Numbered from the stretch's first letter, positions 11,304 through 17,150 are shown. The stretch is DNA of 64,000 nucleotides from Candidatus Omnitrophota bacterium (GCA_029261035.1 JAJDCD010000023.1:301126-365125); one strand, 5' to 3'. Numbers and translations: made by a program. Notes: generated from the letters alone by a model not told the origin.

Positions 11304-14300
11304 ATGCAAGAAAAATTGAGAAAAACTTCTATTCAACTTATTTCTTTCCTTGTGTTGATTGTGTTTTGTCTCGAAAGTATGGGTTTTGCTCAGCTTTCAA
11401 GTGGACTTAATTCTGCGCAGGTCCAACCTGTGTCTTTAATACCTAACAAAGCTTTTCTAGACACCTTCACAATTCCTAGAGATGTGGGTGTTATTCAAAA
11501 ACAAGTTTACTCGCATCCTATTTCTGAAGAACATCCCTTATTAATTCATTTGCAAGATGCGCATGCGAACCCAGAAGCTCAATCTAATATGGCTAAAATT
11601 TTAGAATATCTTAATAAAGAAAAAGGAATTCAACATGTATTTGTTGAAGGTGCTATTGGAAAGCTTGATAGAAGGTATTTGAATTTTTCTAAAGAGGACG
11701 CTATAAACAAAAAAATACAAAACAGATTGATTCAATTAGGAGAGTTTACAGCTTCGGACATTTATTTAGCGAAGCATAAAGAAAAAATGCTTTTCCTTGG
11801 AATTGAGCAAGAAGATTTGTATCGAAAAAATAGAGAACTACTAACGCAAGTTCTTTCTAGGGGAGAGGAAGCGCAAGCTTGGATTCGAAACAGAAACATT
11901 CAAATAGATACCCAATTAACCCGTCTTCAAAATAAAGACCTTTTGCTTTTATTAAGAAGTTATTCTAATCAAGACAGAAATCATTTTATGAGACAGATTC
12001 AACTTCTTCAAAAATTAAATAAGAAGCACCTTAAACAAGATTTGAGTGATCCGAAATTTCAAAAACAATTCCCAAATATGGTTCGTTTAACTCAGTTGAA
12101 ACAGGAACAGAAAAAATTGGATCTAGAAAAAGCTCAGAACGAATGGCTTAGTTTAAAGAAATCAATCGTAGGAAGTGAAAGTTGGAAAGTTACAACAGAA
12201 ATCGAAGAGGTGCTTTTCTCAAAAGATAAGAAAAACTTAAAGGATACAAATCCACGTTACTTATTAGAGCATTTCTATGAACAGGCTATAAAGGCAAGTG
12301 ATACATTTTCATTTAATTCTTATTCTCATCTTTCAGGGTTTGCTCGAAACAAAATATTTCAAGTTGAGTTAATGGCACAACCGCTATTTTTAGAAATAGA
12401 ACAAGTTTACGCGAACCTTTTAAACAGTGTGGCTCAAGGGGAAGAAGAAGAAAATGTGGTTCAGCTTGTAAAGCGTCATCTTTTAACTTCGAAGCTGTTG
12501 CAACTTAAGCTGACTCAAGAAGAGTGGAGAAAGCTACAAAACCAATCAGACACTTTGCCTACAAATCTAGAGCTTATTAATTTAGCATTCACTTTTTATA
12601 AAACAGCAGAAGCTCGAGATCAAGTTTTTGTTGAAAACATTCAAAAACAGTTAAAAGAAAGAAAAATTTCAAAGGCAGTTGTTATTACTGGTGGGTTTCA
12701 TAGCGAGGGTGTCGAAACAGCATTTAAGAATAATCAATGGAACTATGGAACGGTTACACCTCAATTTCATTCTGTGGACGTAGATTTTTATGCAAAAAAT
12801 ATTATGGGAAGGCATCACCAAGATATTGAAAGTTTTCAAGTTGCTAGTGTTCCTTATGCAACATCTCCCAAATTAGCAGATAGATTAGGCGTTGATGCTC
12901 AACAACGCGGCTTACTTGTAGAGACGCTGCGTGGTGCGATTCAAAAAGCAGCAAGCTTAGGTAATGGAAAAGCTCAAGTTGAAGGGTTGGTGTCGTATCA
13001 AACGCGTATTAATAGTAAGGGATACAAACTAGCAACGCATTTAGTTCCTTATATTTCTGAAGGTGTGCTTGGACAACCGCGTCTTATGTGGATTACCTCA
13101 GTTTATGATGCTTCGAACAAATCGGTATCAACGATGTCGGCTACTGTTCCTTATGAGCAATATAATTATGTTCAAGACATGCATCAAAAGGTAGCTGTGG
13201 AAATGAAGGTAATCACAGGAAAAAATAGCGAAAGAAAACGTTTAGCTTATCCTTTCTTTAAAACAAAAAAAGAAAGAAAGAAATTGAGAAAATTTTTGAA
13301 ACGTTTTTTTGAAGATTCAGTTGAAGTTGTTTCTAATCCAATGGAGTCAGAAAAATTAGTGAGTGTTGGGAAGAGGCTAGCGAAACGTGATAGACCAGAA
13401 AAACAAACGCTTAATGCAGCTTTAATTGTTTTGGGGCGCGCACTTAAAGAAAGTCCTCAAGACCCCAATCAATTTTTATTTTCATTTGAAGCGAATAGTG
13501 CGGAAGATTTTCTTTTAGTACATGGTTTTCAGAATGTAAATCAAAGAAGAGCGATACAAGTAAAAGCAGCATCTTTATGGGTAGAGGCCCAAAAAACATT
13601 GGTGCGAGGAAATAGTTTAGGTTCTGTTGAGCAGCAGGCTCGTCCTATTGATAATGAAGGTTTTCGTTTGGATGCTGGAGAAGAAGCTTTTATTAGATTG
13701 GGGACAGGGGAAGACGGAGATGTTTTTCTTTATCTCAACGAAGCCTATGTGGCTACGATGGACAAGGGTGGAAATCTTACGGATGCTGTTATCTTTGATG
13801 ATTCCAAATTGCTTCCTAAAGAAAAAGGTCCTTTGCTTATAGGTTCTCCTAGATTTGCATATAGCAGGGATGACTTTGATCACTTAAAAGACATCCAAGA
13901 ATTTGGTGAATTAGAAAAGGTGACAACAATACAGCAGCCCATGGGCCAAAAAAAGGGAGGTGTTGGAGTTACTGTTCCTGTAAATGTGCTTATTACGAGT
14001 GATTATTTTCAACAAAATAACAGACATTTAGAACCTATTAAAGCAGCTCTAGGATTTGATGTTCAAGAAAGAATGAGAACAGATGATGTGATTCCAAGTC
14101 CCAAGCTGGGAGATGTCCGTCCTATTTACTTAAAAATAAGTCCGAAATCGAATGGAAATGCTGATGTTGTAGATCGAGCAAAAATTTATGGCCGGCTTTT
14201 TCGAAATAGAGTTTTTCAAACAAATATGGCTGTTACAAGGCCTCTAACAGATCCGCTTCAATTTAAAGCGTTAGGGCTCGACCCAGAAGCGTATCAGGAC

Positions 14301-17150: not shown

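Follow-up and report, generated by a model that had tools for sequence, protein, structure and literature searches.

The stretch of DNA considered here (the window; 64,000 nucleotides from a Candidatus Omnitrophota bacterium, GCA_029261035.1 JAJDCD010000023.1:301126-365125) carries two giant open reading frames (ORFs), P1 and W2, that belong to a very large and uncurated protein family. To judge from sequence comparison, this family is built as a chassis with cargo: the chassis consists of a Sec-type signal peptide, an N-terminal module (N-module, or head) of about 500 amino acids (aa) and a C-terminal module (C-module) closed by an amphipathic helix, and between the head and the C-module one to dozens of unrelated enzyme or regulator domains of cytoplasmic type appear to be inserted. 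These products are described here as modular, possibly self-processing secreted multi-enzyme proteins founded on a new family of the TIKI/erythromycin-esterase (Ere) superfamily. Newly described are the delimiter peptides that punctuate the chains, the depletion of cysteine and a larger C-terminal module; an initial annotation of the window had missed all three, and also how large the family is. The Omnitrophota, a widespread group of ultra-small bacteria that have not been cultured, are suspected to live on other cells, and their very long genes are a recognised puzzle.

Shared head and tail of the giant proteins

P1 (11304..17150, + strand) encodes 1948 aa and is identical to the NCBI protein P0001. 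W2 (40997..45679, - strand) comprises 1560 aa when counted from the first ATG, and the residue numbers given for it refer to this ORF; judged from its relatives (MIKKSQLLKK...), the true start is most likely M85 (MIKKSQ..., nucleotide 45427), which gives a family-consistent gene of 1476 aa (40997..45427, -). The W2 frame is open for 84 codons upstream of M85 (45428-45679, -), and the NCBI model P0177 (1457 aa) starts at M104, 19 codons past M85 and within the signal-peptide-like segment (45371-45427, -). The ORFs of 1948 and roughly 1480 aa that the initial annotation had proposed do exist, and so does the N-terminal module that it considered to be shared: BLASTP aligns P1 57-553 with W2 127-590 (E=7e-18, 25% identity, 514 columns), and all the motif pairs quoted there are in register. 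The window has 110 six-frame ORFs that reach 80 aa or more, and of these a hidden Markov model of the family N-module matches only P1 and W2. The NCBI contig to which the window belongs (630,564 bp) holds at least three family members, namely P0001 (P1), P0003 (1694 aa) and P0177 (W2); P1 and W2 have at least one further paralogue in their Omnitrophota genome and, as had been proposed, keep head and tail conserved around a swapped cargo.

A search with P1 returned 42 proteins of 1.2-3.4 thousand residues, whose similarity was confined to the first quarter of the query. When a profile of the N-module (32 sequences) was searched against 1.84 billion cluster representatives, it matched 10,161 of them (E<=1e-3; 7,278 if the limit is set to 1e-30), which range from 537 to 7,498 aa; the module has no model in Pfam or NCBIfam and no match there at E<=1. 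Further members, which the initial annotation recommended to look for in related genomes, were also found at nine genome loci, all of them in Omnitrophota metagenome-assembled genomes (MAGs) from groundwater and with several loci per MAG. These loci, together with the MnmE protein of the window, contradict the chlamydial host that had been implied by the mention of elementary and reticulate bodies: every named best match of MnmE is from Candidatus Omnitrophica/Omnitrophota (49-59% identity), and the closest match (75% identity) lies on a 2.17-Mb JGI metagenome contig. The shortest member with a tail has 923 aa, and 19 such members, which carry little or no cargo, measure 920-1,150 aa. Since these short members are head and C-module with scant cargo, the family looks like a chassis that takes inserted cargo. 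This chassis (signal peptide, TIKI-like head, C-module and tail) can be searched by sequence and is common to more than 10,000 protein clusters.

An AlphaFold2 model of the head (m25056e9c7a29, made from the 32-sequence alignment) reached a pLDDT of 88.4 and a pTM of 0.85. It displays the parallel beta-sheet core flanked by helices that defines the TIKI fold, with core strands at P1 residues 79-85, 111-114, 163-166, 457-463 and 480-486, and the core is interrupted by an all-helical domain of about 280 aa. The scores of the model against known structures were 9.5 for Bcr135 (2rad), 8.8 for EreC (6xcq) and for HopBA1 (5t09), 8.7 for Bcr136 (2qgm), 8.5 for ChaN (2g5g), 8.3 for a TraB-family subunit (8bqs_DQ), 7.6 for RRSP (5w6l) and 6.8 for PMT (2ebf); Foldseek gave weak matches, with Bcr135 and EreC ranked first. 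On this model, the core of the head has the hydrolase fold of the erythromycin esterases, ChaN, TraB and TIKI, and represents a new family of that superfamily and not a recognisable TraB.

The residues invariant in the 32-sequence alignment are, in P1 numbering, H87, E115, G166, Y432, R438, G463, G464, H466, P486 and Y496. The first motif of the head is (I/V)Q(D/E/N)AH, position -2 of the first His being D, E or N across the family, and the second GxxH motif is present as TGGFH, in which G, G and H are invariant. The catalytic residues reported for the superfamily are a His-Glu pair (Bcr135 H85/E113; RRSP H3902/E3930) together with E3900 and H4030 (PMC6254334). The succession of His, Glu and second His in the head fits this pattern by order and spacing (28 residues from His to Glu); the head may be a hydrolase of ester or peptide bonds. 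The superfamily (Bcr135/136, EreC, HopBA1, ChaN, TraB, RRSP and PMT C1-C2) is the closest known relative of the head; the P1 family differs from it in the helical insertion of about 280 aa within the core, in a first motif devoid of glycine and in the position of the module at the N-terminus of giant multi-domain proteins of secreted type (150 of the 150 matches listed, in which it starts at residue 1-75). A large new branch is added in this way to the TIKI/TraB/erythromycin-esterase superfamily. The helical insertion (model 126-408, P1 aa 170-452) produced recurrent weak Foldseek matches to the alpha-pore-forming toxins ClyA, XaxAB, PaxB, AhlB and SmhB; this likeness is non-significant (E 0.3-6, probability <=0.08) and was not used.

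The second conserved end is the tail. To score it, a matrix of 30 positions counted from the carboxyl end was derived from 88 distantly related members of the family, a set that contained neither P1 nor W2 nor any close relative of the two. It scored P1 at +16.6 bits and W2 at +19.5 bits, values that were equalled in 0 of 20,000 shuffles; internal windows of the two proteins gave a mean of -31 (standard deviation 10, maxima 0.8 and 4.8), and the best other ORF C-terminus in the window gave -8.2. The similarity between the two tails is not detected by BLASTP of P1 against W2. Of the 176 family proteins compared, 96 terminate in [SA]A and 29 in SL, with no dependence on length between about 1 and 7.5 thousand residues, and the remainder mostly look truncated. 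Counted from the end, the consensus is A at -1, S/A at -2, A/L at -4, I/L/V at -5, A at -9 and L/I at -15 and -18. From the matrix scores and these end statistics it follows that the tail is family-wide and anchored at the exact C-terminus, so that the similar tails first noticed in P1 and W2 are upheld and extend to further members. The tail is best described, on its residue pattern, as an amphipathic helix fixed to the free carboxyl end, with final residues hydrophobic-x-[SA]-A-COOH; a function as secretion or sorting signal is possible. The terminal tetrapeptides of the three paralogues in the window genome are AQAA, AQAA and LQAA.

The tail of P1 is preceded by a larger C-module, which begins directly after a delimiter and can be aligned with that of P0002, P0003, P0004 and P0005; phmmer supports the match to P0002 and P0004. 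Clustering of the last 330 residues separates groups of 64 (AA/SA tails), 36 (SL tails) and five proteins, the last of them including P1. Between clades, homology of the C-module was non-significant by hhalign except for the tail itself. The features of both proteins are collected in Table 1.

Table 1. Positions of the features of P1 and W2 in the window
Feature	Position (nt)	Strand	Remarks
P1 signal-peptide-like segment, aa 1-29	11304..11390	+	basic n-region, 14-residue hydrophobic core, site between GFA and Q; heuristic call
P1 N-module, aa 50-553	11451..12962	+	predicted alpha/beta core of Ere/ChaN/TraB/TIKI type, ~280-aa all-helical insertion
P1 D85-A-H87, first catalytic-type His	11556..11564	+	D at -2 corresponds to E3900 of RRSP
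P1 E115, invariant Glu, 28 residues after H87	11646..11648	+	spacing as Bcr135 H85/E113, RRSP H3902/E3930
P1 R438, invariant Arg, FYxxAxxRD helix	12615..12617	+	alignment
P1 G463-G-F-H466, second GxxH-type motif, invariant His	12690..12701	+	alignment
P1 delimiter 1, AASLG, aa 549-553	12948..12962	+	structural end of N-module; position kept in P0002-P0006, P0010
P1 delimiter 2, GNSLG, aa 769-773	13608..13622	+	position kept in orthologue P0002
P1 divergent protein-kinase-like region	14046..14633	+	K944 in IYLKIS, D1050-x4-N1055, D1069-F-D1071
P1 basic low-complexity stretch, ~aa 1440-1521	15621..15866	+	predicted coil (low-confidence model)
P1 delimiter 3, GNSLG, aa 1671-1675	16314..16328	+	immediately ahead of C-module
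P1 C-module, aa 1676-1948	16329..17147	+	alpha/beta by prediction (low-confidence model)
P1 GQSLG, aa 1748-1752	16545..16559	+	status uncertain, not conserved in orthologue
P1 tail, last 30 aa, ...EYLAELHQAFVVSKLTAQAA-COOH	17058..17147	+	predicted single amphipathic helix (low-confidence model)
P1 GNSLG, aa 1924-1928	17073..17087	+	start of tail helix; status uncertain, not conserved in orthologue
W2 signal-peptide-like segment (MIKKSQLLKKLTCSLIMISMMGLQLPLAPAAT)	45332..45427	-	heuristic call
W2 N-module, aa 125-590	43910..45307	-	E152-A-H154, E182, R466, GGFH500
W2 delimiter 1, AASLG, aa 586-590	43910..43924	-	N-module end
W2 DEDDh 3'-5' exonuclease, aa 844-1033	42581..43150	-	three Exo motifs intact
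W2 delimiter 2, ASSLG, aa 1045-1049	42533..42547	-	directly after exonuclease domain
W2 repeat unit 1, aa 1050-1219	42023..42532	-	starts 4 residues after delimiter 2
W2 delimiter 3, ANSLG, aa 1218-1222	42014..42028	-	motif match
W2 repeat unit 2, aa 1223-1381	41537..42013	-	starts 10 residues after delimiter 3
W2 delimiter 4, GSSLG, aa 1380-1384	41528..41542	-	motif match
W2 C-terminal region, aa 1385-1560	41000..41527	-	tail = last 30 aa, 41000-41089, ...LQQLFTQAFTQRQIAQAA-COOH

Delimiters, cargo and signs of export

Both chains are punctuated by the pentapeptide [GA]xSLG, which is present in five copies in P1 and four in W2, whereas 0.03 copies are expected by shuffling and 20,000 shuffles never gave more than 2. 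In the remaining window ORFs, about 21,700 residues, the pattern is matched twice, and one of these ORFs is spurious and antisense. The copies are encoded by different codons, and the constraint therefore acts on the peptide and not on the DNA; the same differences rule out a DNA- or RNA-level signal or a recombination joint. The first delimiter of P1 follows immediately after the last confident helix of the head model. Sites 551 and 771 of P1 keep their positions in orthologues and paralogues while the flanks diverge, and the G-x-SLG that precedes the C-module (site 1673) occupies the same column in P0002 and is found just upstream of the C-module in P0003, P0004 and P0005.

Elsewhere in the family a second type of delimiter, [AS]-R-S-E-x-R, takes the same role. 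The tripeptide RSE is found 468 times against 103 expected, and R stands at +4 in 383 of 492 copies. The [AS]RSExR copies have unrelated flanks and a median spacing of 262 aa, the first lying around residue 560-780 and the last about 320 aa from the protein end; the first 540 residues contain RSExR three times, the rest of the chains 388 times (0.03 vs 1.07 per 1000 aa), and its number rises with protein length (Spearman 0.56). An HPr domain of P0085 (1103-1182) is placed between motifs at 1086 and 1218, and a WD40 propeller of P0070 between motifs at 3110 and 3508. The presence of a tail-like helix ahead of every delimiter was considered and rejected (windows ending before RSExR score -27.1, the background -30.9). 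In P0015, tandem repeats of 69 aa without Pfam match (aa 647-991, 1679-1752 and 1986-2059; RSEAR-WGDVESIEWNDWAWLERNGYPTGEGSIQIHSDNGMTG...MQVKVSK) open, in every copy, with the delimiter RSEAR.

A third type, [SG]-G-A-R-L-[AS], occurs in the MAGs nzgw289 and nzgw292 and in protein P0029 (GARL 15 vs 0.27 expected). The SLG type is common to the three members of the window genome, to P0002 and P0005 and to a multi-kinase protein of 6,671 aa described below, and two proteins of MAG NC_groundwater_1969 contain 9 and 10 SLG sites. The delimiter type is uniform within a genome and different between lineages; the head of W2 is closer to the heads of RSExR-using proteins than to that of P1. As the delimiters predict where the pieces begin and end, they offer a direct test of the processing question.

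The cargo found across the family by Pfam is very diverse and includes PrmA, NUDIX, GNAT, SecA, HATPase/HisKA/REC, glutamate dehydrogenase (GDH), metallophosphoesterase, phosphoglucomutase (PGM), glucan phosphorylase, PP2C, cytidine deaminase, sigma70_r4, HPr and WD40 domains. The cargo of W2 is a DEDDh exonuclease and a duplicated alpha/beta unit. The exonuclease matches RNase_T (PF00929, E=1.2e-15) and the PolC exonuclease in the PDB (2p1j, E=3e-11), and its motifs are DLESTG (Exo I, DxE), HNAPYD (Exo II, NxxxD) and HRSTPD (Exo III, Hx4D); the two repeat units, of about 160 aa each, share 35% identity (E=1e-6) and have a delimiter ahead of each. The initial annotation had stated that the middles of the two proteins differ, with an exonuclease in one and a kinase-like motif in the other. 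The exonuclease stands, and the kinase-like region of P1 is detected only below threshold (best E 0.02): its profile meets about 186 protein kinases of the PDB at E 0.02-10, in one register at the beta-3 Lys (K944), the D-x4-N loop (1050-1055) and DFD (1069-1071), and Pfam AceK_kinase is matched (4.6e-4) by one homologue only. The region is common to the orthologue P0002 and the same-genome paralogue P0003, and a kinase-like cargo in P1 is plausible at this sub-threshold level. In P0005, the orthologue of P0003, the D-x4-N and DFD residues are lost (SPLFSN, LTKFRS; alignment A3 columns 560-600), and the kinase-like domain of that protein is likely to be inactive. An AlphaFold2 model of P1 aa 749-1948, made from a five-sequence alignment, had a pLDDT of 41, too low for a fold search.

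With regard to export, the signal-peptide-like N-termini that had been assigned to both ORFs were found again and, according to a simple hydrophobicity rule, such an N-terminus (basic, then hydrophobic) occurs in 169 of 192 family proteins. Internal transmembrane-like segments and RTX GGxGxD repeats were not found in P1 or W2. P1 contains a single cysteine in 1948 aa, placed inside the signal peptide, and W2 two in 1476 aa, one of them in the signal peptide; the mean of 40 other window proteins is 1.12% (binomial P=7e-9 for P1 and 9e-6 for W2). The family median is 0.10% against 0.81% in Omnitrophota MnmE proteins, and this scarcity holds despite a cargo drawn from families that are normally cytoplasmic. 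Proteins that have to pass into or function in an oxidising extracytoplasmic space, and form no disulfides there, typically have almost no cysteine. The depletion is taken as support for export that is independent of the signal peptides, and P1, W2 and their relatives are probably exported. Enzymes of cytoplasmic type, stripped of cysteine and placed behind export signals, would point to an unexplored route of enzyme delivery outside the cell.

Proposed processing at the delimiters and competing readings

The reading that we favour, with confidence a little short of even, is that of Sec-exported chassis-plus-cargo proteins that are probably processed at their delimiters. Export would be co-translational through Sec, because the signal is very hydrophobic, and the exported protein would stay free of disulfides owing to its near-zero cysteine. 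Cuts at the delimiters would release separate enzymes, and the cutter might be the head, acting in cis or in trans as an endopeptidase of TIKI/RRSP type, or a partner protease particular to the genome. Of the two, the head is the obvious candidate, because no other enzyme is common to all members and because Tiki and RRSP, both site-specific endopeptidases, belong to its superfamily; a reader shared in trans could consist of heads that cut one another or of a separate protease. The free C-terminal tail would be recognised by a partner for sorting, secretion or docking. Once released, the enzymes would work outside the cell that made them, plausibly on or inside a host or a prey, since a symbiotic or predatory lifestyle has been proposed for Omnitrophota.

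Several points weigh against processing by the head and export. The glycine of the first GxxH (GTxH) motif is absent at -3 in 32 of 32 sequences (consensus IHIQDAH), as the initial annotation had seen, and no sequence-level link was found between the head and Pfam or NCBIfam (E<=1) or a superfamily member in the PDB (profile, E<=10); of the tentative TraB/Tiki assignment made there, the fold and the active-site pattern survive and the sequence-level match does not. The catalytic geometry of the head is deduced from residue order and spacing. The delimiter type follows the genome and not the head subclade, and this agrees with a reader shared in trans at least as well as with self-processing. 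The three types share little beyond small residues or Ser, and a single conserved protease specificity is not obvious; no delimiter was found for the ...SL-tailed clade, where the enriched tripeptides reflect phosphoglucomutase cargo, and two of the five SLG sites of P1 (1750 and 1926) are not conserved in the orthologue. Secretion-system, protease or immunity genes linked to P1 or W2 are present neither in the window nor in the syntenic locus. The observations cover the homology and architecture of the family, its fold class and conserved residues, its delimiters and tail, the depletion of cysteine and the taxon; the cleavage, the catalysis by the head, the export, the role of the tail and the destination are inferred.

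A stronger form of the same idea, which we regard as rather unlikely, is that these proteins are bacterial secreted polyproteins, that is, enzyme cocktails exported through Sec and cut at lineage-specific pentapeptide delimiters ([GA]xSLG, [AS]RSExR or GARLA) by their own head or by a co-evolving partner, with the tail as an address label. If this were true, a virus-like polyprotein strategy would operate in a cellular phylum and in more than 10^4 protein clusters, probably delivering cytoplasm-type enzymes to a host or prey, and it would provide the first predicted cleavage map for giant Omnitrophota proteins.

By analogy, the nearest functional counterpart of the P1 family would be the MARTX toxins; the viral polyproteins are a second one. 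Both have a variable series of unrelated effector domains between two conserved ends, the N- and the C-terminal region. The MARTX chain is cut in the linkers between its domains by an in-built protease and has a signal at the extreme C-terminus, whereas processing in the P1 family is hypothetical; the glycine-rich RtxA repeats and the C80 cysteine protease domain were not found in P1 or W2 (Pfam), nor were type I secretion system (T1SS) genes in the window or the syntenic locus. The P1 family has instead a Sec signal, a TIKI-type head as candidate protease and lineage-specific linker pentapeptides. Viral polyproteins, which are cut by 3C-like or other site-specific proteases, are likewise single long ORFs of unrelated units joined by a short, repeated, lineage-specific recognition peptide, with the protease encoded in the same chain; the counterpart in the P1 family would be the candidate head. 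On the other hand, the P1 family is cellular, chromosomal, multi-copy, stable in its synteny and apparently export-targeted, and its cleavage is hypothetical.

The giant Omnitrophota ORFs already published ('Archaeovorins' and relatives) belong to the same phylum and, in the papers on them (West-Roberts et al. 2023, bioRxiv 10.1101/2023.11.21.568195; Seymour et al. 2023, PMC10066038; a 2026 preprint, 10.64898/2026.06.07.730766), are described with signal peptides and a mixed Pfam content (HATPase, NUDIX, SecA, kinases); post-translational cleavage is suggested there and the cleavage points are stated to be unknown. According to the published work, those giants exceed 20-30 thousand residues and have many transmembrane helices and C39/S8 peptidase domains, unlike P1 and W2, and type II secretion and pilus genes lie beside the largest of them. 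Term searches of these papers found no mention of the head module, the tail or the delimiters.

Other readings start from the same evidence. These proteins could be uncleaved multi-enzyme scaffolds of the surface or periplasm, with either an uncleaved signal anchor or the head as the anchoring element, in which the delimiters are conserved hinge or docking peptides, for example for a chaperone or assembly partner, and the tail serves oligomerisation or envelope attachment as part of the 'coat' that has been proposed for giant Omnitrophota proteins. This is unlikely, albeit worth serious attention: the linkers around the delimiters are very short, disorder propensity being raised over only about 10 residues on either side, no protease partner was found in the window or the syntenic locus, the N-terminal hydrophobic segment is present (although internal transmembrane segments are not), and giant Omnitrophota ORFs are seen in published work as membrane-associated coats or adhesins. 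Nevertheless, a passive hinge needs no strict pentapeptide, let alone one that is uniform in a genome and replaced wholesale between lineages; moreover, a universal hydrolase-type head with intact catalytic residues would be left unexplained, and the cargo is not adhesin-like.

It is also conceivable, though improbable, that a separate genome-specific protease of the periplasm (tail-specific, of S41/PDZ type or similar) binds ...[SA]A-COOH and cuts the delimiters, the TIKI-like head having another job, such as that of an esterase or peptidase on envelope, host or prey proteins. Proteases of the Tsp/Prc type and PDZ domains recognise C-terminal ends made of small non-polar residues. The tail, in register from the carboxyl end and with small non-polar terminal residues, would suit them; delimiter type and terminal tetrapeptide both follow the genome and not the head subclade, and two of the delimiter types fit a small-x-Ser pattern. 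However, no such protease was identified or found linked to the P1 and W2 loci, and tail-like sequence does not recur before internal delimiters.

The proteins might, thirdly, be substrates of type I secretion, with the C-terminal helix as an uncleaved T1SS signal and the head as a retention or plug module comparable to that of LapA-type adhesins or MARTX. The position of a signal-like element at the exact C-terminus, the depletion of cysteine and the resemblance of conserved ends and variable middle to MARTX, whose effector RRSP shares the fold of the head, agree with this. It is nonetheless very unlikely, as the proteins carry a Sec-type N-terminal signal peptide, which T1SS substrates lack, and have no RTX GGxGxD repeats, and ABC transporter, membrane-fusion protein and TolC genes were not found among the roughly 40 ORFs of the window or at the syntenic locus; the amphipathic helix is conserved and anchored at the C-terminus, and nothing ties it to T1SS.

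Hardly tenable is the label of polymorphic effector or toxin given by the initial annotation, according to which a conserved trafficking region would carry swapped toxic domains for inter-bacterial conflict: like Rhs, CDI and LXG systems, the P1 family combines a conserved, probably exported delivery part with exchangeable enzymatic parts (a nuclease and a kinase-like cargo among them) and several paralogues per genome, but its variable part is internal with a conserved C-terminus, no immunity-like gene lies downstream in a stable synteny with housekeeping genes, known trafficking domains were not found (Pfam, NCBIfam), and the cargo consists mostly of ordinary enzymes and regulators (PGM, GDH, HPr, sigma-factor and SecA domains) and not of toxin families.

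Genomic setting of P1 and W2

The locus of P1 is syntenic with that of its orthologue P0002 (JGI 3300032138, contig Ga0315338_1000003, here L010), window 1815-24527 corresponding to L010:2607-25254. L010 is the 2.17-Mb contig mentioned above, and the MnmE proteins of the two genomes share 75% identity. The genes kept in common encode diadenylate cyclase, an LMF1-like protein, aminopeptidase P, the family protein, a PriCT protein, a FabI-like protein, IspH, arginine decarboxylase (PvlArgDC), an agmatinase-type arginase and LolA. The PriCT-domain gene is convergent with P1, downstream of it, and is kept in this arrangement at the syntenic locus; just past the 3' end of W2 lies the convergent MnmE gene. 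OmpA and LolA genes are present in the window, and a diderm envelope is therefore indicated.

Beside the P1 orthologue, L010:1-983 belongs to a gene for a protein of 6,671 aa with at least four Pkinase domains. Its end consists of KGASLG, about 300 further aa and ...VAELMATMA; owing to the same delimiter and the tail-like end, it is regarded as a further member of the family.

Other observations concern the window as a whole. The gene at 4953-6794 (+) encodes a bacterial protein with the domains of a eukaryote-type lipase maturation factor (LMF1, E=2e-57; LMF1_C) fused to a DCC1-like thiol-disulfide oxidoreductase domain, and it is kept at the syntenic locus. GC skew is positive in all 2-kb bins of 1-64000, with a monotonic rise of the cumulative skew and genes mostly on the + strand, and the window seems to lie inside one replichore, without origin or terminus. 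Folate and pantothenate genes (51324-53766) stand ahead of a tetrapyrrole cluster (53782-59033, +) that comprises a siroheme synthase-like gene, a cytochrome c assembly protein, HemA, HemC and a fused HemD/uroporphyrin methylase. Finally, an ORF of 267 aa without Pfam match occupies 24661-25464 (-), and the syntenic position holds a gene of similar size (250 aa, no Pfam).

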